A DNA stretch of 64,000 nt. It comes from Candidatus Altiarchaeota archaeon (lineage in GTDB: Archaea > Altiarchaeota > Altiarchaeia > IMC4 > SCGC-AAA252-I15). Of this stretch, positions 6,250-56,914 are shown in pieces. How positions within the stretch are numbered: position 1 is the first letter of the stretch; the number at the start of each line of letters is the position of its first letter. The stretch covers positions 1 through 64,000 of the forward strand of contig JAZDNF010000010.1 in the NCBI GenBank assembly GCA_043800255.1, read 5' to 3'. A program made the position numbers and the translations under genes. The notes below the pieces were generated by a model that saw nothing but the letters and a program-made list of their open reading frames with translations, did no database searches and was not told the DNA's origin.

Positions 6250-6250
6250 C

Positions 6251-23207: not shown

Positions 23208-23270
23208 ATCAGTTACTACATGCGCTTACTCAATAAAAGCTATAATATTCCCTGTGTTTAATTGTTTATC

Positions 23271-27816: not shown

Positions 27817-27829
27817 CATGGTAGCCCCC

Positions 27830-27865
27830 TTTTCTGTATGAACTGTTCTTTATATAATCTGGGAA
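27830..27865 (+). promoter_or_regulatory. Array upstream motif, copy 2
   Basis: TTTTCTGTATGAACTGTTCTTTATATAATCTGGGAA directly before the ATG. Confidence 0.6.
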
Positions 27866-40473: not shown

Positions 40474-40931
40474 CTGGGACGAAGGTTGTTAAGCTGAAAT
40501 TGGAGGCTGATGGTGTGCCCGACAAGCTGCCGACTTTGAGGCCGGATATGAGAGAGTCTTCTAAGGTTGATGCTATTACCGAGCTGTTTGATGGTATGAG
40601 GTTTGAGAGTTATAAGGGCAACCTGCAAAGGAGGTCTGAGGACTACTATCAGGGATGCTGGCACAGACTCGGGGACGCGGGTTTTAATACAGGAGTCAGC
40701 AATCAGGAATTTGGGGAAATACTGCGTGTGCTGGAATCTGACTACTCAAAGCGAAAAGATTTCAGAACCGAAGCCAGCTTGTTCCTATCCGCTCTTCTCC
40801 AGAGGTCAGCCTTCAAAGACTCGGAAATCGGGCAGAAGAGACTGGGTGACATAATCGACACTGTCATAGACTCACCTGAGCGTATGCCTCTGCAGGAGAT
40901 TCTGAATAAAACGTGGGCTGGTATCCAATAA
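40470..40931 (+). CDS. Array gene A18: leader and helical domain only, no beta-helix
   Basis: MTGTKVVKLKLE...ASLFLSALLQ, then an unrelated tail with no GXGXG coils. Confidence 0.8.
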   Translation: MTGTKVVKLKLEADGVPDKLPTLRPDMRESSKVDAITELFDGMRFESYKGNLQRRSEDYYQGCWHRLGDAGFNTGVSNQEFGEILRVLESDYSKRKDFRTEASLFLSALLQRSAFKDSEIGQKRLGDIIDTVIDSPERMPLQEILNKTWAGIQ

Positions 40932-40958
40932 CCGGTTTAGACCCTCCGGTTCGCACAT

Positions 40959-40994
40959 TTTTCTGTCTGTACTGTTCTTTATATAATCAAGAAA
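40959..40994 (+). promoter_or_regulatory. Array upstream motif, copy 3
   Basis: TTTTCTGTCTGTACTGTTCTTTATATAATCAAGAAA directly before the ATG. Confidence 0.6.
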
Positions 40995-41672
40995 ATGACC
41001 GGTACTAGAGTCGTCAAACTCAGGCTGGATGATGGGGGGACAGCGGAGAAGCTTCCGAAACTGAAGGAGGATCCTGTTGAGACTGCGTTGGGATTGTATG
41101 AGATGTTGCGGGATAAGCCTGTGCCTGAGGGCTGTTTTCAGGAGGCTATGGCGTTGACCAAGCATCTGAATGTCAGCTCCGACGAGCTTCAGAGCATCTA
41201 CGACAGGATTGAGGGAAACTATCTTGAAGACAAATCCAGCATCGACGAGGCTGGCGTGTTCCTCTCCGCGTTAATCAACAATTCAGGACATCACACGTTT
41301 GTGCTGAAGCCTAAAGTGCTGCTGCACTACTTCTGCTATAAAATCCAGAAGGGTAAGGATATCACCGTTCTTGGGAATGTTGGTTTGGGCGTCGGCTGGG
41401 AGATGGATGGCGGGAAAATCAAGGTTGAAGGCAACGCAGGAGGCGATGCAGGATATACCATGTATGCCGGAGACCTGCACATCACAGGAGACGTTGAATC
41501 GAGCTGCGGAGCCCATATGAAAGACGGTAACATCTACGTCGGCGGAAATGCGAGAAACAATGCCGGCCATTTCATGGAAGGCGGCAGAATCCACATCCAC
41601 GGCGATTCCGGACCTGAGACAGGCTTCGCCAAGAAAGGCGGCGAACTGATAGTAGACGGCAGAAGAGGATAA
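40995..41672 (+). CDS. Array gene A19
   Basis: Leader and coils. Confidence 0.9.
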   Translation: MTGTRVVKLRLDDGGTAEKLPKLKEDPVETALGLYEMLRDKPVPEGCFQEAMALTKHLNVSSDELQSIYDRIEGNYLEDKSSIDEAGVFLSALINNSGHHTFVLKPKVLLHYFCYKIQKGKDITVLGNVGLGVGWEMDGGKIKVEGNAGGDAGYTMYAGDLHITGDVESSCGAHMKDGNIYVGGNARNNAGHFMEGGRIHIHGDSGPETGFAKKGGELIVDGRRG

Positions 41673-41677
41673 AAAAG

Positions 41678-42583
41678 ATGACAGGCACAAAAGTCGTTAA
41701 GATTAACCTTGAGGGCACTGGAGTTCCCGGCAGTCTGCCTGATCTGAGGTTGAGCGGGCCGTCTGCTGAGGAGGTTATCAACGCCTGCGGTGGGATGGAG
41801 GAAATACATACTGCAAAGTATGACAGTATGTTGGAGAAGACTGCGGGATTTGATGTTAATTCACACCAGCTTCAGAGGATAGTGGATGTTGCGTGCGGCA
41901 TGTGCGAGGATGATGACGCCATGAACCGCGTTGGCCTTCTTCTGACGGCGTTGGTGCAGAATTCAAAATCCAACGAGTTCACGATCACGCCTCCGAAACT
42001 GTTGGATCACATAGGGTCCAGGTTGGACGGCGGGAAAAAGATTGTCATAAACGGTGATGCAGGCCATTTTGCAGGAGATGAGATGATTGAGGGGATAGTG
42101 CACATAAAAGGCAATACGTTGAATATGGCAGGTCAAGGTATGGAAGGCGGCAGACTGATTGTGGACGGCAGCACAGGAGACGAATTAGGCGAGTATATGC
42201 TGGGCGGCGAGATACACGTTAAGGGAAATGCTGGGAAGAATACGTGCGAAAAGATGTCCGGCGGTATTATAACCATAGACAGAAATGTAGGAGCCAATGC
42301 CGGCTGGCTGATGAAGGGAGGCAGCATACACGTTAAAGGCGATGCAATAGAGGGTGTTGGCGCGTGCATGGAAGGAGGCTCTATAAAGGTGGGCGGAAAC
42401 ACAGGCGATAATGCCGGCTGGGAAATGGAAGGTGGCACCCTGCACATAAAAGGAAACGCGGGGGATAACGTAGGCCTTAGAATGACTGGCGGTAAAATAA
42501 GAGTCAACGGTAGAATCCGGAGCATAAGCGAGAACTATGCAGGCGGCGAAATCTGGGAGGGCAGAACACAGGTCAAACCATGA
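41678..42583 (+). CDS. Array gene A20
   Basis: Leader and coils. Confidence 0.9.
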   Translation: MTGTKVVKINLEGTGVPGSLPDLRLSGPSAEEVINACGGMEEIHTAKYDSMLEKTAGFDVNSHQLQRIVDVACGMCEDDDAMNRVGLLLTALVQNSKSNEFTITPPKLLDHIGSRLDGGKKIVINGDAGHFAGDEMIEGIVHIKGNTLNMAGQGMEGGRLIVDGSTGDELGEYMLGGEIHVKGNAGKNTCEKMSGGIITIDRNVGANAGWLMKGGSIHVKGDAIEGVGACMEGGSIKVGGNTGDNAGWEMEGGTLHIKGNAGDNVGLRMTGGKIRVNGRIRSISENYAGGEIWEGRTQVKP

Positions 42584-43257
42584 CAGGCACGAAGATTATC
42601 AAGTTGAGGCTGGATGAGGAGGGTGTTGGGCAGAAGCTTCCGAAACTGAAGGAGGGCACTCTGGAAACCTGCCGGAGAGTGTTCAAGGCGCATGACCCCC
42701 GAATGGGACATCTTGGTTATGATGATATGATAGAGGCGACAAAGGATTTGGACGTCGATTCAGAGCAGCTTGAGAATATCCTCCGGGACTTGCATGTCAA
42801 TCATTCTCAAGACAGAAAATTTGGGGAAATAGCCGGCCTATTGCTGTCTGCGTTGGTTCACAATTCCCGGCAAGATGAGTTCGAAATCGAGACTCCAGTC
42901 CCACTGGATTATGTCGGTCACAGGCTAAGCAAAGGGAAGACTCTCACGATAAAGGGGGATGTGGGAGACAATGCAGGAGATGGGATGGACGGCGGGGTCA
43001 TGAACATAAACGGAAACGCAGGCAGCGCTGTTGGAAACAGCATGTGCGATGGCACAATCAATGTGAGCGGATACTCTGGGAACTACACTGGAAGCAACAT
43101 GCACTCTGGCAGAATAAACGTGAAGAAAGAAACCGGCGGAATGACGGGAGCGTACATGGGCGGAGGAATAATAGCCTGCAAAGGCAAGGTATTAGACTTA
43201 GCCCACACCATCTACGGTGGCGCAATATACAGCAGAGGAAAACAGATATGGCCCTAA
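42580..43257 (+). CDS. Array gene A21
   Basis: Leader and coils; close paralog of A22. Confidence 0.9.
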   Translation: MTGTKIIKLRLDEEGVGQKLPKLKEGTLETCRRVFKAHDPRMGHLGYDDMIEATKDLDVDSEQLENILRDLHVNHSQDRKFGEIAGLLLSALVHNSRQDEFEIETPVPLDYVGHRLSKGKTLTIKGDVGDNAGDGMDGGVMNINGNAGSAVGNSMCDGTINVSGYSGNYTGSNMHSGRINVKKETGGMTGAYMGGGIIACKGKVLDLAHTIYGGAIYSRGKQIWP

Positions 43258-43937
43258 CGAGGAGGACAAAAGTCGTTAAGCTGAAGCTGGAGGGCGGCGG
43301 AGAGGCTGAGCGTCTGCCGAAGCTCATGGAAGGCGATATGAAAACCTGCCGGAAGGTTTTCGAAGCCTATGACCCACACATGGGGGAAGGAGATTACGGT
43401 GACATGCTGAAGGCTACTAAGGGTTTGAATGTCGACTCAAAGCAACTGGAGAACATCCTCCGCGACTTGCACGCCAATTACTCACAGGACAGGAACTTCG
43501 CTGATGGTGCTGGCCTCCTACTTTCTGCGCTGGTGAACAACTCAGAGCATGATGAGTTCGAAATCGAGACTCCAGTTCCATTGAATTATGTCGGTACAGG
43601 TCTGATTGAGGGTAAGACCCTCAGGATAAAAGGCAACGTTGGGGATCATGCAGGCGACAGTATGCAAGGCGGCACCCTGAACATCAAAGGCAACGCCGGT
43701 CACAGCACAGGCGACGGCATGCACGGTGGGGAAATCAATGTGACAGGGTTTACGAGAACATTTACTGGGAGCAACATGAATCATGGCAGTATAAACATCG
43801 GAGAAAGTGCCGGAGCAATGACCGGAGCGTACATGGGTGGGGGGGTAATAGTCTGCAAAGGCAGTGTGTTCGGATTGGCTCACACAATCTACGGCGGCAG
43901 AATATACGGTCAAGGAAAGCAGGTGTGGCCAGAATGA
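43248..43937 (+). CDS. Array gene A22 (variant start MALTRRTK)
   Basis: ATG at 43248 in frame with TKVVKLKLEGGG; start position less certain. Confidence 0.8.
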   Translation: MALTRRTKVVKLKLEGGGEAERLPKLMEGDMKTCRKVFEAYDPHMGEGDYGDMLKATKGLNVDSKQLENILRDLHANYSQDRNFADGAGLLLSALVNNSEHDEFEIETPVPLNYVGTGLIEGKTLRIKGNVGDHAGDSMQGGTLNIKGNAGHSTGDGMHGGEINVTGFTRTFTGSNMNHGSINIGESAGAMTGAYMGGGVIVCKGSVFGLAHTIYGGRIYGQGKQVWPE

Positions 43938-44803
43938 CTGGGACCAAGATTGTTAAGCTTAAGCTGGAAGATGGAGGAGCAGCTGACAGGCTTCCGAAGC
44001 TGAGAACGCATACTGTCGATGCAGCACTTAGTTTGTGGGATAGTATTGAATACAGGTCAACAGATTATTCCAGAGACGTCTATGAGAAGCTGTTAGAGGA
44101 GACCAGAGACTTCAACGTGACAAATGAGGATATTCAGGCTATAGCAGACAGGTTGGAGAAGAATTTCTCAAAAAAAGATGATATCTACTCCCCTCATAAG
44201 GCTGGCATACTGCTGACTGTGATAATGCAGAATTCATCAGAGAATGCGTTCAGGCTTAAGACCAAGACTCCGCTTTCCTATCTCGGCTACAGGCTGTTCG
44301 GCGGCAAGAAGATAACAATTGAAGGCAATGTTGATGAGAATGTTGGGCGTCATATGAGGGACGGCCATATTCATGTGAAAGGAAGTACTGGAATGAATGC
44401 TGGGCATGGGATGAGAAACAGCACAATCAGAATCGATAAATATGGGGGTTACTGGCTTGGGAGGGAGATGGGAGAAGGCGGTGAAATCTACGTCGGCGGC
44501 GATGCATCTCAAAACATTGGTCAAGAGATGACAGGCGGAAAAATCGAAGTAACCGGTAATGTGGACAACTATGCTGGGACTCGCATGGAAGCCGGGCAGA
44601 TTATTATCCACGGGAACGCTCGCCATCATCTGGGAGAGGAAATGCGCGGCGGCAGTATCAATGTCGCAGGAAATACTGGCAAGTATACTGCGGATCGTAT
44701 CACCGGGGGCAGAATCGACATAGGCGGAAAGGTTGAAAGCTTCGGCGACATCTCGGACAGTCGCGGTGAAGTCTACCCCAAAGGCAAAAGGGTGAGACGG
44801 TGA
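43934..44803 (+). CDS. Array gene A23
   Basis: Start moved to MTGTK at the ATGA overlap. Confidence 0.9.
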   Translation: MTGTKIVKLKLEDGGAADRLPKLRTHTVDAALSLWDSIEYRSTDYSRDVYEKLLEETRDFNVTNEDIQAIADRLEKNFSKKDDIYSPHKAGILLTVIMQNSSENAFRLKTKTPLSYLGYRLFGGKKITIEGNVDENVGRHMRDGHIHVKGSTGMNAGHGMRNSTIRIDKYGGYWLGREMGEGGEIYVGGDASQNIGQEMTGGKIEVTGNVDNYAGTRMEAGQIIIHGNARHHLGEEMRGGSINVAGNTGKYTADRITGGRIDIGGKVESFGDISDSRGEVYPKGKRVRR

Positions 44804-45420
44804 CAGGCACGAAAGTCATAAAGCTGAACCTTGAGGGCCAGGATGGGATTGGCAGGCTGCCTGGCCTGAGGGACAGTGTCGTCCCAGAGGCCATACGATT
44901 GTTCGCCGAGAATTTCAACTTGACGAGCGATACCAGCAGATACTACGGGTGGGCGTTGGAGAACACCAAAAAACTTGATGTGAGCTCGTCGGAGGTTCAG
45001 TCCATACTAGACAGTCTGGAAAAGACATTCGGCGACGACCATACATACAGTTGGTTCATGGGATTGTATATGACGGCGCTGATGAGGAACTCCTCCCGCA
45101 AAAAATTCAGGCTGGCGGCGAAGGTGCCGCTGCACTTTCTGGGTTATCACATGGAGGAGGACAAGGATGTGACGGTGGACGGCGATGTCGGAGACTGGGT
45201 CGGAAGCAACATGGCTGCCGGCAGGATAACCGTGAACGGCCGCGCCGGCGATAGTCTGGGAGCGCTCATGGAAGGCGGCAGCATACACGTCAGAGGAGAC
45301 GCTGGAATGGATGTGGGCCGCGGCGCGAGGTCGGGGACGATAGACGTTGACGGAGTCATTGGGGGAGTCGCCCACGATGTCAGGGGCGCGAAGGTCAGGC
45401 AGAAAGGGAGGAGAGTGTAA
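44800..45420 (+). CDS. Array gene A24
   Basis: GTG start in a GTGA overlap; leader and coils. Confidence 0.9.
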   Translation: MTGTKVIKLNLEGQDGIGRLPGLRDSVVPEAIRLFAENFNLTSDTSRYYGWALENTKKLDVSSSEVQSILDSLEKTFGDDHTYSWFMGLYMTALMRNSSRKKFRLAAKVPLHFLGYHMEEDKDVTVDGDVGDWVGSNMAAGRITVNGRAGDSLGALMEGGSIHVRGDAGMDVGRGARSGTIDVDGVIGGVAHDVRGAKVRQKGRRV

Positions 45421-45422
45421 CA

Positions 45423-46001
45423 ATGGAGCCGACCAAAGTAGTAAAGCTGAAGTTGGACGGCGGTGGCACGCCAGAGAAGCTCCCAAAGCTGATGGAGCCA
45501 GGCGAGAAGGAGCCGCTTGAGCTCTACAGGATGACAAGATACTCTGGCAAGGACGTTGAAGCTGCGGGCGAATTCTATGACCTCATATGGGCGAAGACCG
45601 AAGGGTGGGAGCTATCCAACGAGAAAATCCAGAAAACCCTGACGCGGCTGGAGAAGGGATGCGGTCATGAGCCTGACTTCAGGCAGAAGGCTGGAGTCTT
45701 CATCTCAGCATTGCTGAACAGGGCGGAAAACAACGACCTCAGATTGGAGTCGAAGATTCCCCTGGACTTCTTGGGATTCAGGTTCGGGAAGACTGTGCTG
45801 GTAGTCTACGGGGACACGGGAGAATACACCGCAGCCCAGGTGGAGCATGCGACCATACAGGTGAACGGCAACGTTGGGAAATATGCGGGCGACGGCATGC
45901 AAAACGGGATGCTGGACGTGAAAGGAAAGTTCGAGGAGCCATGGGGCGGAATATCTGTGGGAGTTACTGTAAAAGAGGGCGGAAGATACTTGAACCCGTG
46001 A
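45423..46001 (+). CDS. Array gene A25 (short beta-helix)
   Basis: MEPTKVVKLKLDGGG leader; its stop abuts the vWA gene's stop. Confidence 0.85.
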   Translation: MEPTKVVKLKLDGGGTPEKLPKLMEPGEKEPLELYRMTRYSGKDVEAAGEFYDLIWAKTEGWELSNEKIQKTLTRLEKGCGHEPDFRQKAGVFISALLNRAENNDLRLESKIPLDFLGFRFGKTVLVVYGDTGEYTAAQVEHATIQVNGNVGKYAGDGMQNGMLDVKGKFEEPWGGISVGVTVKEGGRYLNP

Positions 46002-48218
46002 TCACCTGGCCTCCTGTTCCGTGACCCTTATGACCCTGTCCCTCACCTGGTTACTGTAGAACTTGCTAACGATAGGTATGATCTGGTCGAATTCCTCATC
46101 CGGGATGAACTGCGCGAAAACGTTGGATTTCTCGCTCGCACGGCCGACAACACCCTCATAAGCTGGTATCACACCCTCAGCGCCAGTTCCGAGACCGAGT
46201 ATCAGCGCCAATACTTGGTCGTCTTCCTGCATCTGCTTGAGAAGAGGTTTTAAAGCATTTGGATCGCCGTAACCGTCTGTAAGCACGACCAGGATTTTCA
46301 CGACATCAGGGTCTCTCAAAGTCAGCTTGTTGTATTGGGCCTTCAAGGCTTTCGCATCCTCTGTCCCGCCCGCGCCCTCGTACAGTCTGGCCAGCATCAC
46401 GATTTTGCTCTCCTCTGTTATGGGAGCGTCAAGGTCCTTCGCAGTCCAAAGTTTTGTGGCGAAGCCTGCGGCGCCCAATTTCAGGGGATTCTCGTCAGGC
46501 CTCAAAAGCTGCTCGCCCTCAAGCTGGTTCTTGCCGCCCTCATGGGCTTCGGCCATGATGACCATGAGCTCTCTACACCTTCTAAGCTTCTCGCCGTTCA
46601 TGCTGCCGCTCCCGTCGACGAGGAAGAACAATTCGGACCTGACGAACCTCGGAGTCTTGACCTCCTGCATCATCGTGGGAGGCTCCATCTCGCCGCGCGC
46701 CATCTCTGAAATGTACTCATACTCGAGGCCTGGGCTTATCTCTCCCTCCCTCTGGGTGTAAGACAGTTCGCCCAGCCTGTTCTCGCGCATGACTTCAACG
46801 ACCTGCGATTGTAAGGAGGATATCTCATCCCTCCTCTTCTCCCTGACCCTGAGATACTCGTCCGTTATCACCGTCCTTACGTCATACCTCTCCGACAGGT
46901 CGCGCGACCTCGAGCCCATGTCCCTGAGCCTCTCCTTGGTGGCATCCGTAATCCTGTCATAGAAGTCCTGGTGGTCCATCTCCTCTATCGGCCGGGCACC
47001 TTCTTCACCCTCCTTGGGTTTGCCTCTTTCGGTGAGAGGTGCCATAGCCTCGGCAGCCTTGAGGAGCTCATCGAGAACCTCCTTCGCCATCGCCTTCATC
47101 TCCTCCCGCTCCTGCCTTGTTGGAGGCGCAGCCCTCGACGGGCCTCTAGGTGGAGCCTGGCCTGGCATGCCTTTCCCAGGTTTGCCTTTGCCTGGCTTCC
47201 CCTTGCCTGGCTTGCCTTTGCCTTGTTTGCCCTCGCCTTCTTGGCTTTCTCCCTCCTGCTCTTCTCCTTGTTCGTCTCCCTCCTGCTCATCGCCCTTCTG
47301 TCCCTCCCCCTTCTGGCTCTGTCCTTTACCGTCTTTCTGCTGGTCTCCTTTCTCACCTTTCTGCTTCTCTTCTTCCTTTTGTTTTTTCCTCTCCTCGCTC
47401 CGCTGTTGGACCTCCTTGTCGACCAGCTCGACGAAATAGGGTATTATCTTCTCATAGGATTCGAACTTCCTCTCAAGCTCTCTCTTCCCTGATTCCTTCT
47501 TTTTGAAGAATTTGCCGTACTGGCCGAGGCTTGCGAAGGGTTCTAGGAGGCCGGCATCCGAGACTTTCTTATAAACTTCTGCAACGTCTTCGTCGACGAG
47601 GTCTGTCAGCGGTTTGCTGGAGGGGTTTATGTATTCTCCGGTGACCAGCTGCCCGAACTGGTCAGGCTTTGTAAGATGCTTGTAACTGTAGTCCAGACCC
47701 GGGGGGGCGCCTAAGGCGTTAATGCACGCTGCAACGTCCTTGTACGGGTATCTGCTCATGTAAGTGTCATCCCACACGTCTACGACGCAGTTCTGAAGGT
47801 ATTTGAGGAATACGTTGTCATCATACCATTCAGGCAGCAGCGGCTTGCTGTCTGCGATGTGCTCGTCTATCCTCTCGTGCAAGGCTTTCACTGGCGGTGC
47901 GTGGTGGCCTGCCTCGTGGGCGAAAAGGCCTAAGACCTTCCTTGGCGTGTCCAGGTAATCCGCGATGTCAGGGCCGAAGAGTATAAGTTTCGAGTCAAGC
48001 ATGGTCGCCCAATTGTATTCCCCCTTAACCGGAGTTGGATTTTCAATGAACCTGTAGCCTGTGCTCTCCGTGATCATCTCGAAAAACGGCTTATGCTCCT
48101 GGAGAAACGCCAACATCTTTTTCCTGCGGTCTTCGTTGACCGTTCCCCGCGTAAGCTTGAACGGCTCAGGAAGTGTTGGGTTTTGGGCGTGTCTTATGGG
48201 GGCCTTAGACTTTTGCAT
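46002..48218 (-). CDS. HEXXH metallopeptidase-like domain + charged low-complexity linker + vWA (MIDAS) domain protein
   Basis: FAHEAGHH; E/Q/K/G-rich linker; FLVDGSGSM, GGTED and LVVLTDG MIDAS motifs. CobT/DUF2201-like architecture. Confidence 0.85.
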   Translation of the reverse strand: MQKSKAPIRHAQNPTLPEPFKLTRGTVNEDRRKKMLAFLQEHKPFFEMITESTGYRFIENPTPVKGEYNWATMLDSKLILFGPDIADYLDTPRKVLGLFAHEAGHHAPPVKALHERIDEHIADSKPLLPEWYDDNVFLKYLQNCVVDVWDDTYMSRYPYKDVAACINALGAPPGLDYSYKHLTKPDQFGQLVTGEYINPSSKPLTDLVDEDVAEVYKKVSDAGLLEPFASLGQYGKFFKKKESGKRELERKFESYEKIIPYFVELVDKEVQQRSEERKKQKEEEKQKGEKGDQQKDGKGQSQKGEGQKGDEQEGDEQGEEQEGESQEGEGKQGKGKPGKGKPGKGKPGKGMPGQAPPRGPSRAAPPTRQEREEMKAMAKEVLDELLKAAEAMAPLTERGKPKEGEEGARPIEEMDHQDFYDRITDATKERLRDMGSRSRDLSERYDVRTVITDEYLRVREKRRDEISSLQSQVVEVMRENRLGELSYTQREGEISPGLEYEYISEMARGEMEPPTMMQEVKTPRFVRSELFFLVDGSGSMNGEKLRRCRELMVIMAEAHEGGKNQLEGEQLLRPDENPLKLGAAGFATKLWTAKDLDAPITEESKIVMLARLYEGAGGTEDAKALKAQYNKLTLRDPDVVKILVVLTDGYGDPNALKPLLKQMQEDDQVLALILGLGTGAEGVIPAYEGVVGRASEKSNVFAQFIPDEEFDQIIPIVSKFYSNQVRDRVIRVTEQEAR

Positions 48219-48271
48219 CGGTTATAATAGAACAACTCTCGTATTTATTCAATACCTTCCCTCTATATACC

Positions 48272-50824
48272 ATGGCTTCCACGAAGACCAAGAGAGATAA
48301 TCCCCTGAAACTGGTTACTGGTGGGATCCACTACGGTACGAAGGATGTTGTAGAGGATATCCCCTCCGAAAAACTCGAGAAACTAATGAGGGGTGCTGAA
48401 AGTGGGAACGACAGGGATAAGGCTCAATTACGAAAGCTAAGGGAGGAAAAGTACCGCGAGAGAAAGAAGGCGATGGATGCGGCTCTCCCGCAGGGTGAGG
48501 AGGTCTGGGACGAGCAGACGATGCTCTCGGTCGTTAACGTCAGACGGTACATCAAAGAGGCTGGGCAGGCTAAAAAGAACCTGATCTCCGCAAAAGATGA
48601 CGAAGAGAGGGAGGCTGCAGCACAGGTCTACGCCTACACCCAGAAGAGGCTGGACGACTTCCTGGACCAGTCTCCACAGTTCTATGACAACGAAACCGGC
48701 GATTTCTTGAAAGAGGGCAAGCCCGGCCAGATGAGGCCTGTGTTCGAGAAAATGCACCGGCTCTTCCTGAAAGAGCAGAGGAATTACGACAAATACGTTG
48801 ATAAACAGGACAGGCTCTCCGAGGTCGAGGAGGAGATTGAAAGGCGGGGCGAGCAGAGGGTTGAAATCGTAAAACGCCAGAAGAAAGGCGAACCCGGGAC
48901 ACTGGACAGTAAGAACATGAAGGCTCTCGCAATCACATCCAGACTTGAAGAAAAGGCCGAAGCGGTTGATTCGGCAGAAGTCCTCGGAAACCTGGAGCGC
49001 ATATACTCGAAAGACAGCAGAGAATACAAGGCGCTTAAGGCAAGGCTGGAGTCGAAGGCCAAGGGCGGTGAAGAAGACCTGAAGAAAATGCATCATAAGA
49101 AGCTGGTAGAGCTCAGAGACGGGCTCAGAAAGGAGATAGCTGACCTGGACGAGGACACGATGATCGAGCACTTCAGGACCGAAGACCTGCGGAAAAAGCT
49201 GATAAAGGACCTTGACGCCGGCAATGACGTCCTCCTGATACCCTACACTGTTGAAAAACTGCAGGAGCTCAGGTTCATAGAGAAGAACAATCCGAACACG
49301 ACCATAGGCTGCGTCGCAGTCGGAGAGCCTGGAACAGGCAAGACAACCGCCATCAGACAGCACATCCACGACACGGGGCGGGAGTTCGCCTACATCGACA
49401 TGTCAGGCGACGTCTCAAGGTTCATGCTATATGGCAGTAAATCAGTCTCAGTCGGCGACCCCATAGAACAGTTCACGAGGCTTACGAAGGCTCTGGAGAG
49501 TTTCGACGTCAAGAAGGTGGGAGCCCTCGTGCAGGCAGGCGTTGACGCTGTCGGGCCGAGCTTCCTGGCCCTGATAGACGAGGAGATAGGGAAGGAGGGC
49601 GCATTGAACGTCAAGAACCCCGAGAACGTGAAAAAGCAGCTGCAGGATATCGTCGAGAAACAGTTCAACAGGGAGCTCGCGACTGAAATCTACAAGTACG
49701 GAAAACAGAACGGGTGGCGTTACGGCTTCCTCGTCGACTGCCTGAGGAAAGGAGTCTGCCCTATCATCGACGAATTCAACAAGTCCAAGGACCTGTCACT
49801 ATTGCACAGCCTGATGACTGCAGTGCCGGCTGCGGACGAGGAGGCGGGCCCGGAGCCTGGCAAAGACGCGGACAACATCAAAAAGTCCCACAGAGGATGG
49901 TGGTATTTCGCAGACAACAACGAGTGGATCAGGGTCCCGAAGGACTGGAGGATGTTCTTCACAGGCAACATCGGCGCAAAGCACAAGGTGCACAGCGTCG
50001 TAGGCGCGCTTGGAAGCAGGATGGAAGGGAAGGTGATATTCTTCGACTACCCGCCTGCTGAGCAGGAGTATGAGGTCATGCAGGCCTCCGTGTCAGACAG
50101 CGACGGAGAAGTCAGGAGGAGCAGGAAGGACATGCAGGACCTTATGGTACTTACCGGCGAGGCAGTGCCAAAGATCAGGAAGGGAATCGCCAAGATGGCG
50201 AATGCAATACCGATATCGTTGAGAAGCACGAGGCAGATTGGCGGCCTACTGTTCAACCGCCAGACGCAGACTCCGAAGGACATCGCCTTAGACAAGGCGG
50301 TGAAATGGGTGCTGGTCGACACTTACGCGATCACAGAGGACAAGGAGCCTGCCAAGCTCGTCGTCGCCGAGCTCACGGCATGCGGCATTCTATTGTCTGA
50401 GGGCATCGGCGAGAAGCTGGTCGAGGACGGCCTCCTAAAGGAGGCTGACCTGGAGAGGAAGAGGGAGTCCCACAAGATAGGATACCGGAGCGTCTCAGTC
50501 GACGACTTCAAGGAGCTGGTGGGAGAGGATGGCACGTTCCTCCTCGACGCCCGCGCGACCGGCGACAAGGTCATAAAGGGGACTCAGACGTCCATACCCC
50601 ACGACAAGCTGCAGAAGAAGGGCGCATCGAAGAAGGATAGCGGGCTTCCGGCAGACAAGAACGCCAAGATTGCAGTCTACTGCGACAGCGACGGCGACTC
50701 AGCCCAGGCTGCGAGAGCCCTGGCAGCAGCAGGCTACAAGAGGATATACACCCTCGAGGGCGGCTTCAGCGCATGGGAGGCTAAAGGATACGACGTAGAG
50801 CAAAAACAGCAGAGCACCCCCTAG
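48272..50824 (+). CDS. MoxR/dynein-related AAA+ ATPase with N-terminal coiled coil and C-terminal rhodanese domain
   Basis: Walker A GEPGTGKT; Walker B PIIDEFN; sensor-1 FTGN; ALGSR; ISLRS. C-terminus LLDAR...IAVYCDS...LEGGFSAW is rhodanese. Confidence 0.85.
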   Translation: MASTKTKRDNPLKLVTGGIHYGTKDVVEDIPSEKLEKLMRGAESGNDRDKAQLRKLREEKYRERKKAMDAALPQGEEVWDEQTMLSVVNVRRYIKEAGQAKKNLISAKDDEEREAAAQVYAYTQKRLDDFLDQSPQFYDNETGDFLKEGKPGQMRPVFEKMHRLFLKEQRNYDKYVDKQDRLSEVEEEIERRGEQRVEIVKRQKKGEPGTLDSKNMKALAITSRLEEKAEAVDSAEVLGNLERIYSKDSREYKALKARLESKAKGGEEDLKKMHHKKLVELRDGLRKEIADLDEDTMIEHFRTEDLRKKLIKDLDAGNDVLLIPYTVEKLQELRFIEKNNPNTTIGCVAVGEPGTGKTTAIRQHIHDTGREFAYIDMSGDVSRFMLYGSKSVSVGDPIEQFTRLTKALESFDVKKVGALVQAGVDAVGPSFLALIDEEIGKEGALNVKNPENVKKQLQDIVEKQFNRELATEIYKYGKQNGWRYGFLVDCLRKGVCPIIDEFNKSKDLSLLHSLMTAVPAADEEAGPEPGKDADNIKKSHRGWWYFADNNEWIRVPKDWRMFFTGNIGAKHKVHSVVGALGSRMEGKVIFFDYPPAEQEYEVMQASVSDSDGEVRRSRKDMQDLMVLTGEAVPKIRKGIAKMANAIPISLRSTRQIGGLLFNRQTQTPKDIALDKAVKWVLVDTYAITEDKEPAKLVVAELTACGILLSEGIGEKLVEDGLLKEADLERKRESHKIGYRSVSVDDFKELVGEDGTFLLDARATGDKVIKGTQTSIPHDKLQKKGASKKDSGLPADKNAKIAVYCDSDGDSAQAARALAAAGYKRIYTLEGGFSAWEAKGYDVEQKQQSTP

Positions 50825-50836
50825 GTTTTCCTGTTC

Positions 50837-51580
50837 ATGGCCGGCACCAAGATAATCAAGCTGAAGCTGGAGGAAGGGTTGGGGGGGAAACTCCCGGCAT
50901 TGAAACCAGGTTCCGTTGATGCAGCTATCCAATTATACGAAGAACTAACCAGAAAATTGGCTTACGATTTTTTACAGTCCAATTATGGCCATGTGCTAGA
51001 TGCTACTAAAGGGCTTAACATACGCTCTGATCAGATGCAGGATGTTGTCTCCGGTCTTGAAAAACTTCGAGAGGGTATCGGACATCCCCACCGTGTTGGC
51101 TTATTCTTGACGGCTCTGATGCAGAACTCGCCTGATGAGACGTTCTTGATTGCTCCGAAAAGGCAGATATCCCATCTTGGTTACCGGTTGGAGGGCGGGA
51201 AAGAGATTACTGTGGAAGGCAGTCTTGACGATTACACAGGTAGTGATATGAAGGATGGCAGGATATACGTTAAGGGTTATGCAGGCTCGTCGACTGGGGA
51301 GGGCATGAAAGGCGGTGAGATAATCGTCGAAAAAAGTGCGAAATTATCGACAGGACGATTAATGGCTGGCGGCAAAGTTCACATTAAAGGCGGGTCTGGA
51401 ACCGGCACAGGAGCCGTCATGAGCGGCGGCGAGATAATAGTCGACGGCACACTCTCCGGCGAGACGGGAGCGGGAATGGAAGGCGGCACTATCCGAGGGG
51501 GGCGCATTCCAATGCTGGGCATAAGCAGCCTTTACAAGTCCGGTACGATCATCAGCGGCGGAGCGCAGTTGAAACCATGA
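50837..51580 (+). CDS. Array gene A26
   Basis: MAGTK leader; starts 12 bp after the AAA gene. Confidence 0.9.
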   Translation: MAGTKIIKLKLEEGLGGKLPALKPGSVDAAIQLYEELTRKLAYDFLQSNYGHVLDATKGLNIRSDQMQDVVSGLEKLREGIGHPHRVGLFLTALMQNSPDETFLIAPKRQISHLGYRLEGGKEITVEGSLDDYTGSDMKDGRIYVKGYAGSSTGEGMKGGEIIVEKSAKLSTGRLMAGGKVHIKGGSGTGTGAVMSGGEIIVDGTLSGETGAGMEGGTIRGGRIPMLGISSLYKSGTIISGGAQLKP

Positions 51581-52548
51581 CCGGCACGAAGATTATCAAG
51601 CTGAAGCTGGATGGGATGGATGCTCTCGAAGGGCTTCCCAAGTTGAGGGATGACTCTGTTGTCGATTCAGCCTACAAGAAGTTTCTCGATATCCTGGGGA
51701 ATGAGAGGATTCCGGAATTCAGGGATGCTGCTAATGATGCTATGAGGGGGTTGAATGTCAGAGGCAGCCAGCTTCAGATGATATACGACCTGCTGGAGGG
51801 CGAATGCTCCCGCGTCAGTGATTTCAACTCGATGGCTGGCTTGTTCCTAACCAGTCTGATGCAGAATTCAACGGATAAGAAGTTCAGGTTGAAGATTAAC
51901 CGGCCGCTTAACTTTCTGGGAAACCCTTTGACTGGCGGGAAGGAGTTGACGATAGAAGGCGACGTTGGCGATGCGACCGGAGCCCACATGGAAGACTGCA
52001 AGATTAGGGTAAATGGCAGTGCGGGGGAATACACGGGCGCGAATATGAAAAGGGGTGTGATAGAGGTTACAGGATACGTTGACAGCAAGACGGGACATAG
52101 GATGGAAGACGGGACAATAAATGTGGGAGGAGATGCTGGCGACTTAACCGGACTTGACATGAAAGGCAACAGCCTGATAGCGGTGGGAGGCTGCTGTGGG
52201 AACAGCACCGGAATGCAGATGAAAGGGGGCAGGCTGACCGTCCGGAAGGGTGTGGGCAATGATACCGGGACGAGGATGTCCGGCGGAGAAATCATGGTCG
52301 GCGGCATATCAGGACAGTCCACTGGACAGTACATGGTGGACGGCAGGATAACAGTACACGGGGATACAGCAGACCAGACCGGCTGCGGAATGAAAGGCGG
52401 GACAATACACGTTATAGGCAGGGCGAGAGGCGAGACCGCGAAAGAAATGGAAGGCGGAAAAATCGAGGTGATGGGCGGAATAGACGAAATCAGCAAAGAA
52501 TACCTCTCAGGGGAGATCTGGGAAAACGGCAATAAGGTGAGAGGATGA
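51577..52548 (+). CDS. Array gene A27
   Basis: Leader and long beta-helix. Confidence 0.9.
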   Translation: MTGTKIIKLKLDGMDALEGLPKLRDDSVVDSAYKKFLDILGNERIPEFRDAANDAMRGLNVRGSQLQMIYDLLEGECSRVSDFNSMAGLFLTSLMQNSTDKKFRLKINRPLNFLGNPLTGGKELTIEGDVGDATGAHMEDCKIRVNGSAGEYTGANMKRGVIEVTGYVDSKTGHRMEDGTINVGGDAGDLTGLDMKGNSLIAVGGCCGNSTGMQMKGGRLTVRKGVGNDTGTRMSGGEIMVGGISGQSTGQYMVDGRITVHGDTADQTGCGMKGGTIHVIGRARGETAKEMEGGKIEVMGGIDEISKEYLSGEIWENGNKVRG

Positions 52549-53888
52549 CCGGCACCAAAGTAATCAAGTTGAAGCTGGAGGAAGGCGGCAGAGACAGCCT
52601 CCCGGAGCTGAAAGACAGTGTTCTCAGAAGGGCTTTGAAAGTCTATGAGGCTGCTCCAAGTTCCGGTTTCGGGTTGGATTCTGACGACGTCCAAGGCGTC
52701 TACGATATGATGGTCCAGGGTACTAGAGGCTTCAACGCCAGCCCCGCACAGGTCGAGCAGGTTCTCACGGAACTTGAGATGGCATATTCCCAGGACGATG
52801 CTTATCCTGAAAAGGTTGGATTGCTCCTCACTGCGCTGGTACATGATTCGTTTCACCGTGAATTTAAAATATCTCTGCAGAAGGACCGACCACTCAATTT
52901 CATCGGGTACAAACTGGGTAAGGGTAAGAAGATAATTATCAATGGTGAGGTGGACGACCTTGCGCCCCACCTGGATGGCGGAGAGGTAGAAGTGTTTGGA
53001 AACGGCGGAAACCACGCAGGCTACGGCATGACTGACGGTAAGGTTCACATCCACAGGGGCGTTGGAGTATGCGCCGGAGAATGCATGCGTGGCGGAACCC
53101 TGATAGTTGACAAAAATGCTGGGGACTGGACTGGAGCCAGGATGGTCGGAGGCGACTTAATAATCAAGGGAAACGCCGGCGAATACACGTGCAACGGCAT
53201 GGAAGGCGGGAGGGTGGATATCGGAGGTAGGATAAAAAACCTGTCAGATGAGATAAAAGGCGGCGAAGTCTACCATAAGGGGGAGAAGATATGGCTGAAG
53301 GAGGGCGAAGCTGGAGCGGTCTCAGTATTCGAGTGGACGAGGATGCCCATGGAAACGACGGGAGGGTTCTCGCCGATGGAATGCGACAGTCCGTGGGATT
53401 ACTACAAGCTGGTATCGGAGAAGACCAAGAGATTCGATTTAAACTCCAATCAAGTGAATTCCGTCATGGGAACGCTGGAGAAGAGGTTTTCAAAACAGAA
53501 GGGCTTCGCTGAGCGGCTGGGTTTGTTCCTGACGGCGTTGATAGAGAATTCATCCTCCAAGGAGTTCACGCTCAAGCCGAAGACACTGTTGACTGACCTA
53601 GGAGACAATCTAAAATCGGATAAGACGATAACCGTGAAAGGCAGCGTTGGAGGGGATATAGGTTTTCTAATGGAGAAGGGCAGAATTCACATCAAAGGGG
53701 ATGCTGGTGACGAGGTTGGCGTGGCCTTGAATGGAGGTCATATCATAATCGACGGAAACTGTGGGGAAGGCTGCGGCCGCAGGATGAAGAATGGCAGAAT
53801 CGAGGTCGGCGGCAAGATAGCTAACAAATACCACGGTTCACGCGGTGGTGGAGAGGTCTGGGAAAAAGGCGAGAGAGTCTATCCCTAG
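52545..53888 (+). CDS. Array gene A28: fusion of two units, the second without a leader
   Basis: Two helical + beta-helix modules. The second matches the A2/A7/A10 subfamily. Confidence 0.9.
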   Translation: MTGTKVIKLKLEEGGRDSLPELKDSVLRRALKVYEAAPSSGFGLDSDDVQGVYDMMVQGTRGFNASPAQVEQVLTELEMAYSQDDAYPEKVGLLLTALVHDSFHREFKISLQKDRPLNFIGYKLGKGKKIIINGEVDDLAPHLDGGEVEVFGNGGNHAGYGMTDGKVHIHRGVGVCAGECMRGGTLIVDKNAGDWTGARMVGGDLIIKGNAGEYTCNGMEGGRVDIGGRIKNLSDEIKGGEVYHKGEKIWLKEGEAGAVSVFEWTRMPMETTGGFSPMECDSPWDYYKLVSEKTKRFDLNSNQVNSVMGTLEKRFSKQKGFAERLGLFLTALIENSSSKEFTLKPKTLLTDLGDNLKSDKTITVKGSVGGDIGFLMEKGRIHIKGDAGDEVGVALNGGHIIIDGNCGEGCGRRMKNGRIEVGGKIANKYHGSRGGGEVWEKGERVYP

Positions 53889-53923
53889 CGGCGGAATCAC
53901 TGATTAGGCTCCTATTTCAGCGT

Positions 53924-53959
53924 TTTTTTGTCTGTACTGCTCCTTATATTATCAGGAAC
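53924..53959 (+). promoter_or_regulatory. Array upstream motif, copy 4
   Basis: TTTTTTGTCTGTACTGCTCCTTATATTATCAGGAAC directly before the ATG. Confidence 0.6.
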
Positions 53960-54730
53960 ATGGCAGGCACGAAAATCGTTAAACTGAGGCTCCAGGGCGG
54001 ATCAGACGATAGGCTGCCCAGTCTGAAGGATTCTATAGTGCCTGAGAACGTGATTGAGGCAGCCTCTACCGCTTTTGAAAAGTCAGTCTGGAGCCCTCTT
54101 ATGGTTGGAATGTACGACGAGGCCGGGCGGCGCATAAAAGAAGCCGATCCTGAGAACGTGCTGTTTGGAAGCCTGAATTCAGGCCAGATTCAAACATTGT
54201 ACCAAAAGCTTGAGGAAAGCTTCAAGGGGGATAAAGAATACGATTACAAGATGGGGACATTCATAACCCAGCTGATGCAGAGGTCAACCAAGAGCGAATT
54301 CAAGCTCAAGGTCAGCTCGCTCCTCCAGTGTTTCGGCATGAACCTGTCAGGCGGCAAGAAGATAACCGTTGAAGGCGACCTCGGGAACTACGCCGGACTG
54401 GAAATGTCAGACGGGCAGTTAATAGTGGATGGCAGCGTTGGGGCGTGGGCCGGGCAGGGCATGACTGGCGGATACCTTGAAATCGGGAATAACGCATCCT
54501 CCTGGCTTGGATTCAAGATGAACGGCGGGAAGATAGTCGTGAAAGGTAATGTGGGAGATTTTGCCGGCGAAAGGATGGACGGCGGAAAAATATTCGTCCA
54601 CGGGAACGCAGGCAAATACGCCGCAAATTTTATGAAAGACGGCCTGATGGACATCAGAGGCGACGTCGAAGAGTTCGGAAAGATCGCCGGAGGCACAGTC
54701 CACCACAGGGGACGGAAGGTGAAAACATGA
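53960..54730 (+). CDS. Array gene A29
   Basis: MAGTK leader and coils. Confidence 0.9.
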   Translation: MAGTKIVKLRLQGGSDDRLPSLKDSIVPENVIEAASTAFEKSVWSPLMVGMYDEAGRRIKEADPENVLFGSLNSGQIQTLYQKLEESFKGDKEYDYKMGTFITQLMQRSTKSEFKLKVSSLLQCFGMNLSGGKKITVEGDLGNYAGLEMSDGQLIVDGSVGAWAGQGMTGGYLEIGNNASSWLGFKMNGGKIVVKGNVGDFAGERMDGGKIFVHGNAGKYAANFMKDGLMDIRGDVEEFGKIAGGTVHHRGRKVKT

Positions 54731-55464
54731 CCGGGACTAAGGTTGTCAAACTGAAATTAGACGACGGTAGTCTCGGCGAGAGGCTGCCCCAAATCAGGGA
54801 AAATACCGCTGAGAAGGCTGTGGAATTGTACCTCACGTTGGGCGAACGCGATCCCATCATCAGCTGCCACAACAGGGCTGTGAGCGCTTTCCAAGAGTAT
54901 GATGCCAGCTCAACACAGCTGCAGAATGTTATCAACACGCTGGAGGAAAACTTCGGCTCCGATGAGGAGTACAGCTGGAGGGCCGGGTTCATAGTCAACG
55001 CCCTGGTCCTGAACTCAAAACACGCGAGGCTGAAAATAAAACCGAAACTGCCTTTGGATTATATAGGCTTCAAAATGGACGCCAAAAAGCACATCACCGT
55101 CGAGGGCGACCTTGGTGATGAAACCGGAGCAGACATGCAAGATGGTAGAATACATGTCGGAGGATCTGCAAAGAATCAGACCGGCAGCGGAATGAAAGGC
55201 GGCAGCATACAAGTTGACGGTAACGTTAACTGGCTTACGGCAGCAAACATGCAAGGAGGCACATTACACATCCGAGGGGATGCTGGAAACGCTCTTGGAT
55301 TTGGCTTGTGCGGTGGCACTATAATCGTGGAAGGCAACATAGGGAATCGTACAGCAGACATGATGCATGGCGGAGTCATCAAAGCCGGGGGGAAGATTGA
55401 GAGCATAGACGAAAATTATCAATCCGGAGAAATCTGGGAATCCGAGATTAAGGTGCGGGGATGA
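54727..55464 (+). CDS. Array gene A30
   Basis: Leader and coils. Confidence 0.9.
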   Translation: MTGTKVVKLKLDDGSLGERLPQIRENTAEKAVELYLTLGERDPIISCHNRAVSAFQEYDASSTQLQNVINTLEENFGSDEEYSWRAGFIVNALVLNSKHARLKIKPKLPLDYIGFKMDAKKHITVEGDLGDETGADMQDGRIHVGGSAKNQTGSGMKGGSIQVDGNVNWLTAANMQGGTLHIRGDAGNALGFGLCGGTIIVEGNIGNRTADMMHGGVIKAGGKIESIDENYQSGEIWESEIKVRG

Positions 55465-56141
55465 ACAGGCAGAAGATCATAAAACTGAAACTGGAGGGAG
55501 GGGCTCCTGACAAGTTGCCGCAGCTGAAGGAGAGTGCGGTGGATACGGCTGTGGCAGCCTATCGGAGTGTGCCGTGGGAGGCGTTGGAGGGCTCCTACTA
55601 CAACAATGTGGTGAGGGCGTTGGATGGTGTCGACGTCCGCCCGGAGAAGCTGCAGGAGGTAATGGACGCGGTCGAGAAGCCTGGAGTCAGAGACAGCGCA
55701 CATAATCTGTTCGCTGGGATTTTCCTATCCGCACTAGTCAACACATCCTCCCGCAAGAAATTCAAGTTCAGGCCGAAGTCGCAGATGGATTGGGTCGGTT
55801 ACAGTTTGGAGGAAGGTAAAGAGCTCACAGTGGACGGGAACGTTGGCATTATGGCTGGGAGAGAAATGACGGGAGGTAGATTACATATCAGAGGCGACGC
55901 GAGAACATACGCGGGATGCGATATTAAAGACGGGGAGATGCTCGTCGATGGGAGCGTTGGAGACTCTGGTGGTCAGGGCATGATAGGGGGTACCCTGACT
56001 GTGAAAGGGGATGCGGGGTCGAATCTTGGGAACTTCCAGTCCGGGGGGAGGATAAACGTTGAAGGGGAGGTCAAGAGTTTCGGCCCGCACATGATGGGCG
56101 GCGAAATCTACAACAAAGGCGAGAGAGTGTGGCCGAAATGA
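55461..56141 (+). CDS. Array gene A31
   Basis: Variant leader MNRQKIIKLKLEGG and coils. Confidence 0.9.
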   Translation: MNRQKIIKLKLEGGAPDKLPQLKESAVDTAVAAYRSVPWEALEGSYYNNVVRALDGVDVRPEKLQEVMDAVEKPGVRDSAHNLFAGIFLSALVNTSSRKKFKFRPKSQMDWVGYSLEEGKELTVDGNVGIMAGREMTGGRLHIRGDARTYAGCDIKDGEMLVDGSVGDSGGQGMIGGTLTVKGDAGSNLGNFQSGGRINVEGEVKSFGPHMMGGEIYNKGERVWPK

Positions 56142-56914
56142 CTAGGACGAAGATCGTGAAGCTGAAATTGGAACGTGGAACTTATGACAAGCTGCCGGAT
56201 TTAAGGGATGGTTATCCAACATTTTTTCTAAATGTTCTCAGGGAGTTGCAAGGTCTTAACATGCCGATGCGGACTAATTCTGAGGCTGATATTGGCGCAT
56301 GCTTCGAGAAGGCGTTTGAAAAGTCGAAGGGGTTGGATCTGAATTCCGAAAGGCTCCAGAGGGTATATGATTCTCTGAAAAATCACATCTCTGATCGCCC
56401 CCATAGTAACCATACATCAAACATTTGGGCAGGGTTATTATTGACGGCGTTGATGCAAGACTCGAGTCATACTGATTTCACGCTTAGTGTGAACAAGCGG
56501 CTGGATTTTATGGGGTTCGGGCTTAATGGAAAGAGGATAACTATGGTGGGGGATGTGGGGGACTATCCCGGCAGTCAAATGAACGGAGGGAGCATAACAG
56601 TGAAAGGAAACGCTGGCGACTATGTTGGCTTCAACATGGGCAGAGGAGAAATCCAAATAGAAGGAAATGCGTCAGATTATGCGGGATCGTGCATGAGAGG
56701 CGGCTACATCCACGTCAAACATGTCGGAGATTATGCAGGTCACGAGATGATCGATGGTGTTATCACAGTATCGGGGGACGCAGGAGAGCACACAGGAAAG
56801 CGGAGCAAGGGGGGAGCAATCCGAGTCGGCGGCATAATCGAAAGCGCATCAAGAGACGGTATGTGCAAGATAGAACCTCTGGAAGACCCAGATGACATAG
56901 GTTTTGACATATGA
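56138..56914 (+). CDS. Array gene A32
   Basis: MTRTK start at the ATGA overlap. Confidence 0.9.
   Translation: MTRTKIVKLKLERGTYDKLPDLRDGYPTFFLNVLRELQGLNMPMRTNSEADIGACFEKAFEKSKGLDLNSERLQRVYDSLKNHISDRPHSNHTSNIWAGLLLTALMQDSSHTDFTLSVNKRLDFMGFGLNGKRITMVGDVGDYPGSQMNGGSITVKGNAGDYVGFNMGRGEIQIEGNASDYAGSCMRGGYIHVKHVGDYAGHEMIDGVITVSGDAGEHTGKRSKGGAIRVGGIIESASRDGMCKIEPLEDPDDIGFDI

Follow-up and report, generated by a model that had tools for sequence, protein, structure and literature searches.

A Candidatus Altiarchaeota archaeon carries, within the 64,000 nucleotides analysed here (the window, which is the first 64 kb of the 131-kb contig JAZDNF010000010.1 in a genome of 1.75 Mb that is 93% complete), a divergent gene pair coding for a MoxR-class AAA+ ATPase and for a protein with a von Willebrand factor A (vWA) domain. 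The pair is embedded in a long array of genes whose products share an N-terminal tag and mostly a GXGXG beta-helix. On balance, and reasoning from sequence and from analogy with Rea1/midasin, we regard the pair as probably a tag-directed, midasin-like machine consisting of motor and adaptor, with the array proteins as its partners. The co-occurrence of the pair with large tagged families built on three different scaffolds, together with the tag that the ATPase shares with these families, argues strongly for a dedicated functional link between them. The features on which the description rests are as follows.

46002-48218, minus strand: adaptor gene with HEAGHH motif and vWA domain containing a metal ion-dependent adhesion site (MIDAS); open reading frame (ORF) of 738 residues
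48272-50824, plus strand: ATPase gene, AAA_5/MoxR class; ORF of 850 residues
48219-48271, no strand: divergent spacer of 53 bp, AT-rich with TATA-like runs, read from the sequence
26884-46001, plus strand: upstream block A1-A25, 25 tandem genes, identified by the N-terminal hidden Markov model (HMM) and by Pfam GXGXG and NCBIfam FwdC-like matches
50837-64000, plus strand: downstream block within the window, A26-A41, 16 of 72 genes identified by the N-terminal HMM; A41 is cut by the window end and the block continues to 107658
50837-50908, plus strand: example of the tag, residues 1-24 of A26, from the paralog alignment
47901-47918, minus strand: HEAGHH codons (residues 101-106), putative zinc site, from the alignment of 20 homologs
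46602-46616, minus strand: MIDAS codons D535-G-S537-G-S539, from the same alignment
49322-49348, plus strand: Walker A, GEPGTGKTT (residues 351-359), with G351, P353, G354, G356, K357 and T359 invariant in 24 of 24 homologs
49769-49783, plus strand: Walker B, DEFNK (residues 500-504), with D500, E501, F502 and K504 invariant
50498-50785, plus strand: rhodanese domain (residues 743-838), Cys at the active-site loop position, Pfam PF00581, E 5e-13

The start codons of the two genes face each other across the spacer, which, judging from its sequence, is probably a shared promoter region. The stop codon of A25 (TGA, 45999-46001) directly abuts that of the vWA gene (46002-46004) with no nucleotide between them, so that transcription of the upstream block must either end inside the vWA gene or run antisense into it. 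At the other end, 12 nt separate the end of the ATPase gene (50824) from the start of A26 (50837). The pair fills the sole gap of more than 150 bp in the array (4827 bp). Its GC content is 0.51-0.56, compared with 0.49-0.53 in the neighbouring array DNA and 0.56 in the kilobase just upstream. Repeats internal to the array and weak chance pairs were all that the search for repeats turned up; none flanked the pair, and a transposon-like insertion was rejected on this ground.

The original prediction, made from the letters of the window, had placed here a divergent pair with a 53-bp spacer, abutting stops on the vWA side, an A26 start 12 bp past the ATPase stop and no terminal repeats, and the ORF positions and the sequence bear out this geometry. 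Its statement that these are the only non-array genes in 37 kb holds over a wider range, 97 genes and 81 kb. The N-terminal HEAGH motif that it had read in the vWA protein is present as HEAGHH at residues 101-106, with a Pfam VWA match at E 3e-7, and the MoxR-like AAA+ assignment could be specified as AAA_5/MoxR class by family-wide AAA_5 matches and intact Walker motifs. The C-terminal rhodanese domain, the full size of the array and the tag-like N-terminus of the ATPase were absent from it.

The array, its tag and the two proteins of the pair

The array consists of 97 contiguous tag-bearing ORFs on the plus strand (contig positions 26884-107658), which take up 81 kb, equal to 4.6% of the genome. 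In these ORFs, the HMM built on the first 110 residues detected 98 domains, in agreement with the whole-genome search. Twenty-five genes precede the pair and 72 follow it, and the array extends well past the window, where 41 genes (A1-A41) are seen. Neighbouring genes overlap by 4 nt at 77 of the 96 junctions, so translation is probably coupled over long stretches of the array. The median pairwise identity of the paralogs was about 35%, the median identity to the best paralog 43%, and just one pair exceeded 80%; on these identities, the paralogs are old. A segmental duplication was observed within the array, between contig positions 63140-65037 and 75029-79131, in which the gene at 63140 is 82% identical to that at 75029, and the gene at 64006 is 67% identical to that at 78097; the partners lie 15 and 18 genes apart.

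Each array protein is built from a 24-residue N-terminal tag, a four-helix domain and a GXGXG beta-helix. In the AlphaFold2 (AF2) model of A26, computed with 94 paralogs (predicted local distance difference test, pLDDT, 92.6), four helices were predicted at residues 26-97 and the beta-helix at residues 102-246. The body matched FwdC, FhcC and the C-terminal domain of GltB (Foldseek E 1e-4 to 5t5i_C; root-mean-square deviation, rmsd, of 2.8 over 158 columns to 6s6y_C). Pfam GXGXG (PF01493) matched at up to E 2.2e-14 and TIGR03122 at up to E 2.4e-20, with NCBIfam scores far below the equivalog cut-offs (72.9 against 130.65 for TIGR03122 and 52.4 against 340 for NF042910). Two members depart from the usual size: a 447-residue protein (52545-53888, plus strand), a fusion of two neighbouring genes, has two helical domains and two beta-helices behind one tag, and a 153-residue protein (40470-40931) has the tag and the helical domain and almost no beta-helix.

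The consensus of the tag is M-T-G-T-K-V-V-K-L-K-L-E/D-x-G ... L-P-x-L-K. Among the 94 paralogs, K8, L11 and P20 were invariant, M1, T4, K5, L9, L19 and L22 were conserved in at least 90%, and position 12 was acidic in 93. The tag is the most conserved segment of the array proteins, with a top-residue frequency of 0.71 compared with 0.40-0.53 elsewhere. Residues 1-25 of the A26 model had no secondary structure, the pLDDT over the first 20 residues was 59-68, and the segment was predicted to be disordered. As far as the alignment and the model indicate, a peptide of this kind, N-terminal, short, apparently disordered and strongly conserved while the bodies have diverged, looks like a docking tag. 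The same tag opens two genes on contig C10 (6052-7958, minus strand), which code for a GXGXG protein of 219 residues and a helical protein of 416 residues; no GXGXG domain and no Pfam match was found in the latter. The occurrence of the tag on a non-GXGXG helical protein indicates that it is portable between folds. They are the last two genes of a six-gene operon for repeat proteins, among whose products are a 771-residue protein and a 252-residue protein with M-P-P-L-K-E-P.

A profile of the tag and the helical domain, searched against 49 genomes of the order, found nothing outside this genome, barring one marginal match at 5e-4. Against 1.84 billion representatives the same profile gave 105 matches, of which about 85 were the genome's own paralogs. 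The remaining 20 or so, including P0125-P0142, were weaker and had a helical plus GXGXG body with a similar C-terminal motif and without this tag. Several of these remote relatives have another conserved N-terminal motif, R/K-F-G-x-Y/F-K-P-E-x-E..V-R, which suggests that further tag dialects exist.

The ATPase consists of a tag-like N-terminus, a helical N-region of about 330 residues, the AAA core, a lid and the C-terminal rhodanese domain. An insert of about 90 residues separates Walker A from Walker B; it comes after the conserved D376-G388 block and before N480-K504. A helix-2 insert together with a pre-sensor-1 hairpin is the structural signature of the MoxR clade. Besides the Walker residues, R583 and R651 were invariant in 24 of 24 homologs. 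All 24 family members matched Pfam AAA_5 (PF07728) at E<=1e-3, the best at 3.5e-13, and the protein of the window stood just under the cut-off (21.8 bits against 22, E 2e-4). No Pfam AAA_3 match was found for the ATPase. Weak matches were obtained to GvpN (E 0.0065), to phrog_249 (E 1.1e-5) and to CobS-like proteins, and a PDB sequence search with the ATPase profile gave only weak P-loop-level matches (Lon, ClpB, dynein). The rhodanese domain is present in one of the 24 family members, that of this genome, where it replaces the tagged tail of the relatives. A stand-alone rhodanese paralog with 38% identity is encoded on contig C7.

The adaptor protein has a zincin-like N-domain (about residues 29-290), a disordered linker rich in K, E, G and Q (291-417), a helical stalk and the vWA/MIDAS domain (486-737), within which Pfam VWA matched residues 530-676 above its cut-off. 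The MIDAS is complete, with D535, S537, S539, T619 and D648 invariant in 20 of 20 homologs, and H101, E102, G104, H105 and H106 of the HEAGHH motif were equally invariant. In the AF2 model (pLDDT 72.7), three strands (56-59, 70-73 and 78-81) are followed by the helix that bears the HExxH motif (92-104), and the helix at 135-154 offers candidate third zinc ligands in D147 (invariant) and E151 (conserved in at least 90%). Structurally, the vWA domain was closest to the MIDAS domains of Rea1 (Z 19.7, rmsd 2.9, 215 residues aligned) and MDN1 (Z 18.9), with a Foldseek E of 2.4e-7; generic vWA domains (Z about 17) and NorD (Z 16.7) came next, and solved vWA domains overall spanned Z 14-20. The matched Rea1 and MDN1 structures are complexes with the ubiquitin-like (UBL) handles of Ytm1, Rsa4 or NLE1, and the NorD structure comes from NorQD. 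The fold search with the whole adaptor was dominated by the vWA domain and barely probed the zincin-like N-domain. In the ESM Atlas, that domain resembled, as leads, domains of phage proteins, some of them with CobT/VWA (template modelling, TM, scores of 0.63-0.70, in virus-rich clusters), and a bacterial cluster at 0.75.

Other genes border the array. Upstream of it lie genes for Nop56/58, FtsZ and an archaeal phosphoglycerate mutase, and two giant NHL-repeat proteins with lamin-tail domains (1417 and 2485 residues; 1996-13708, minus strand). Directly 5' of the array, at 23262-26738 on the plus strand, is the gene of a secreted M6 (InhA-like) metallopeptidase of 1158 residues with CBM96/DNRLRE and lamin-tail (LTD) domains. 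On the 3' side (contig 107713-123475), large proteins with hydrophobic N-termini are encoded.

Tagged families beside related pairs

Members of the ATPase family are rare. When 5.8 billion clusters were put through a word-limited search, 25 proteins were returned for the ATPase and 12 for the vWA protein, and the family was present in 3 of 61 Altiarchaeota genomes and also in bacteria that belong to the candidate phyla radiation (CPR); the titled genome loci with the ATPase come from two Altiarchaeota and various CPR bacteria. In total, 30 ATPase loci were collected, 12 from genome contigs and 18 from metagenome contigs, among which L017 and L051 are the same DNA, L047 and L048 are near-duplicates, and related genomes do not represent independent samples. 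Ten of the 12 genome loci had a vWA homolog close to the ATPase; in one of the other two the contig is cut 223 bp after the ATPase gene, and in L016 none was found within 10 kb.

Within 10 kb of the ATPase, 21 of the 30 loci had between 1 and 17 genes of one multi-copy family, here called X. In five of these loci, the ATPase gene is separated from the vWA gene by four to seven X genes, which places the pair inside an array, just as in the window. The X proteins, of about 270 residues, have no Pfam match, conserved N-termini and a C-terminal tag of the form hydrophobic-P-x-x-K/R-x-F. The tail of the ATPase belonged to the same motif class as the tails of the array proteins in 13 of 13 non-redundant loci. 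ATPase and array tails resembled each other more within a locus (16.7) than between loci (12.9), with a permutation p of about 4e-4, a value that is overstated since the loci are related. The other two Altiarchaeota with the ATPase, G004 and G018, have ATPases whose N-termini align with the array tag of the present genome, and the ATPase of the present genome keeps the first half of this tag.

These two genomes have a further expanded family, Y, of about 240-residue helical-repeat proteins ending in P-P-L-K-K-L or M-P-P-L-K-R-F. Y gave 47 matches in G018 and 26 in G004, both of which have the pair; two weak matches in G016 and one in G013, which belong to the same genus and are without the pair; and none in the genome of the window. 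X and Y showed a weak similarity that is only suggestive (hhalign probability 49%, E 1.7e-4).

The original prediction had proposed to test whether the pair recurs with tag-bearing GXGXG genes across genomes. For co-occurrence and synteny with tagged families the test was positive, with arrays in 21 of 30 loci and the vWA gene in 10 of 12 genome loci, the families found being X and Y in place of GXGXG proteins. Since X is a family other than the GXGXG proteins, it is the logic of tag plus machine that is conserved and not the fold of the client. The dedicated tie between the pair and tag-bearing multi-copy families, as originally proposed, is thus supported by the arrays, by the phyletic pattern and by the tag on the ATPase.

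Proposed mechanism and other explanations

Rea1/midasin is a dynein-related AAA motor whose MIDAS takes hold of proteins by a conserved N-terminal handle, the proteins being otherwise different, and which pulls on them; Rea1-type MIDAS domains bind the handle through an acidic residue. By analogy, each array protein would present a rigid beta-helix behind a small helical domain and a flexible 24-residue handle. The handle may dock on the vWA/MIDAS-zincin adaptor, where the acidic residue at position 12 is a candidate for binding the MIDAS metal. The same adaptor would couple to the AAA_5 ring, and in the relatives the terminus of the ATPase carries the same handle. Driven by ATP, the ring could then pull on, remodel or extract the handle-bearing protein or the partner or assembly bound to it, after which the HExxH domain of the adaptor may clip the handle or the bound target. 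Binding, the subunit that reads the handle, the direction of action (array proteins as clients or as exchangeable recognition subunits) and cleavage are what we infer from this analogy. For the last step, section 24 of PMC7159879 offers a precedent, in which a zincin processes fast-diverging proteins with a conserved terminal peptide near MoxR-vWA systems.

Several observations weigh against this mechanism or narrow it. X genes are missing from nine of the 30 loci; seven of these are cut at the pair or within about 330 bp of it on at least one side, and L053 has unrelated flanks of 5.8 kb and 2 kb and no vWA gene, while on the intact side L019, L022 and L045 are flanked by unrelated genes over 4-7 kb. 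In G004 and G018 the tagged genes are mostly dispersed from the pair, in small tandem clusters over many contigs, so the embedding of the pair in an array is not obligatory. X and the array proteins have no detectable homology (hhalign probability 0.5%), and what links the two domains of life is therefore a short motif together with gene order. The ATPase of the window itself is without the L-P-x-L half of the tag and has the rhodanese domain in place of the relatives' tail. The Y tag contains no acidic residue, so recognition of an acid by the MIDAS cannot be a general rule. The zincin assignment is weak too: Pfam peptidase families matched the HExxH domain in none of the 20 members at E<=0.01, and M48 models in the ESM Atlas aligned at TM 0.44-0.48 only.

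The combination of diverged bodies and a fixed handle also admits a reading as immune-like or conflict signalling, in which the 97 beta-helix proteins would be hard-wired sensors, the MoxR-vWA hub would relay their signals and the zincin would be the effector, in kinship with the MoxR-vWA ternary systems and Esr. We consider this, the main rival, rather unlikely. Published MoxR-vWA conflict and sensor systems speak for it. The sections of Kaur et al. 2020 (PMC7159879) on these systems describe variable partner proteins, peptidases fused with the vWA part in roughly 9% of the systems (rarely a metallopeptidase) and zincin-processed, fast-diverging proteins with conserved C-terminal peptides. 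The corresponding part of PMC10907252 proposes that sensors diversified by diversity-generating retroelements (DGRs) feed MoxR-vWA modules and reports that DGR targets in CPR are often fused to an AAA ATPase, and PMC13622651, in its description of Esr, presents a MoxR-vWA signalling pathway with divergent sensor domains. The deep divergence of the bodies (median best-paralog identity 43%) behind a handle that is fixed and occurs on another fold too, and the patchy distribution (3 of 61 genomes), fit such a role as well. Against it, no VMAP, STAND, TIR, caspase or trypsin domain was found in the 81-kb locus; GXGXG alone was found by Pfam in the 11 array proteins sampled. All 97 neighbours were tag plus GXGXG, a result obtained with no dedicated VMAP profile, so that distant VMAP-like regions are possible. 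PADLOC gave no match for the four proteins tested, the ORF list of the window contained no DGR or reverse transcriptase, and the FwdC/GltB beta-helix is a structural element and no known ligand sensor.

A broader proposal joins the midasin-like hub to a recognition function. The array could be a germline-encoded repertoire, in which 97 diverged beta-helix "receptors" plug by one handle into a midasin-like ATPase/MIDAS/zincin hub, as a hard-wired counterpart of DGR sensors, with the same logic used on other folds in CPR bacteria and small-genome archaea for immunity or for interaction with hosts or partners. We put this forward tentatively, as a speculation with a limited chance of being right.

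The tag could serve another partner or purpose, such as compartment targeting, secretion or co-assembly into filaments, with the ATPase merely co-targeted and the pair not reading the tag at all. Both the ATPase and the array proteins being tagged is what would be expected of co-targeted cargo, secreted or surface proteins flank the array (the M6 peptidase with LTD and the proteins with hydrophobic N-termini), and the ATPase has its weak match to GvpN (E 0.0065). This explanation is nevertheless improbable: among the 30 loci, no candidate gene for a receptor or pore was recurrent, their contents being the ATPase, vWA and array genes beside unrelated flanks only, and a transmembrane-like window was present in one of the 97 array proteins and a signal-peptide-like N-terminus in none.

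MoxR-vWA pairs commonly adjoin many different genes, and the pair might be an ordinary chaperone for an unrelated client that was inserted in a pre-existing array. The antisense orientation of the vWA gene relative to the entire array, and the closest relatives L013 and L045, which have no array beside the pair on their assembled sides, would agree with such a coincidence. It is made very improbable by the arrays that accompany a rare ATPase family in 21 of 30 loci from CPR bacteria and archaea, by the tag common to ATPase and array, by the joint presence or absence of the pair and an expanded tagged family within one genus, and by the lack of detectable insertion scars or repeats. An origin as remnant or cargo of a virus or mobile element carrying a MoxR-vWA pair and a fast-evolving multigene family, to which the phage-like adaptor N-domain (TM 0.63-0.70, a lead only), the weak phrog_249 match (E 1.1e-5) and the patchy distribution might point, is the least probable of all, as neither protein had a tblastn match at E<=1e-3 among 50,697 phage records, ORFs resembling capsid, terminase or integrase genes were not found in or beside the 81 kb, the composition matches the contig and the paralogs are old.

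Significance and comparison with known systems

MoxR-vWA pairs and their variants in conflict systems are already known. A search of open-access full text found no literature on this ATPase-vWA family, on tagged arrays of this kind or on a tag shared with the motor. MoxR-vWA modules are among the most widespread and poorly understood AAA+ modules, the client being mostly unknown, and here the genome itself points to the partners. If our reading of the pair as a tag-directed motor and adaptor is true, it would be a prokaryotic two-gene analogue of the handle-pulling mechanism of midasin. The recognition code would be testable, from the handle to the MIDAS/zincin or to the AAA protein, with a tag that is short, disordered and genome-specific. 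Should the bodies be clients, this system would be the first of the MoxR type in which a degron-like tag is defined; should they be recognition modules, it would represent a new form of hard-wired diversity system. CPR bacteria, in which the system recurs, are organisms of largely unknown biology.

Several known MoxR-vWA modules resemble the pair in part. NorQ-NorD, CbbQ-CbbO, RavA-ViaA, GvpN and CobS-CobT share with it the two-gene module of an AAA_5 ATPase and a vWA protein with complete MIDAS, NorD being among the top structural matches and the GvpN and CobS-like matches being weak. Those pairs serve one conserved enzyme or structure, whereas the present pair accompanies large diversified tagged families. 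It differs from them also in the helical N-region of about 330 residues, the insert of about 90 residues and the rhodanese domain of the ATPase, and in the HExxH domain of the adaptor.

The MoxR-vWA ternary systems and FxSxx-COOH-type modules, as described in the parts of PMC7159879 devoted to them, and Esr, as outlined in PMC13622651, have the same MoxR plus vWA core with variable partners. The described systems of PMC7159879 further resemble the present one in that a peptidase is sometimes fused to the vWA protein and in that a zincin is paired with diverging proteins that have a conserved terminal peptide. In contrast to the ternary systems in that account, no VMAP, effector-associated domains, radical-SAM or AP-ATPase occur here, the partners are folded proteins of 150-450 residues in arrays of up to 97, and the ATPase is tagged. 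The hosts, CPR bacteria and Altiarchaeota, lie outside the survey statistics given in those parts of PMC7159879.

The body of the array proteins is the right-handed GXGXG beta-helix (PF01493) of FwdC/FhcC and of the C-terminal domain of GltB. Unlike these, the array proteins add the tag and the four-helix domain and vary in the number of turns (153-447 residues), and neither formylmethanofuran dehydrogenase nor glutamate synthase has partner subunits encoded in the locus.

The closest resemblance is to Rea1/Midasin (MDN1). The motor is likewise an AAA_5 (dynein-related) ATPase, the MIDAS of Rea1 is the best match of the vWA domain, and varied bodies carry a common handle, of which position 12 is acidic in 93 of 94 cases here. 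The differences are that motor and MIDAS are encoded by separate genes in the archaeon, that the adaptor has a zincin-like domain, that the handle is a disordered peptide of 24 residues and not a folded UBL domain, and that there are 97 handle-bearing paralogs compared with two or three. As generic vWA domains scored just about 2 Z units lower, the relationship to midasin is to be read as a resemblance and not as demonstrated orthology.

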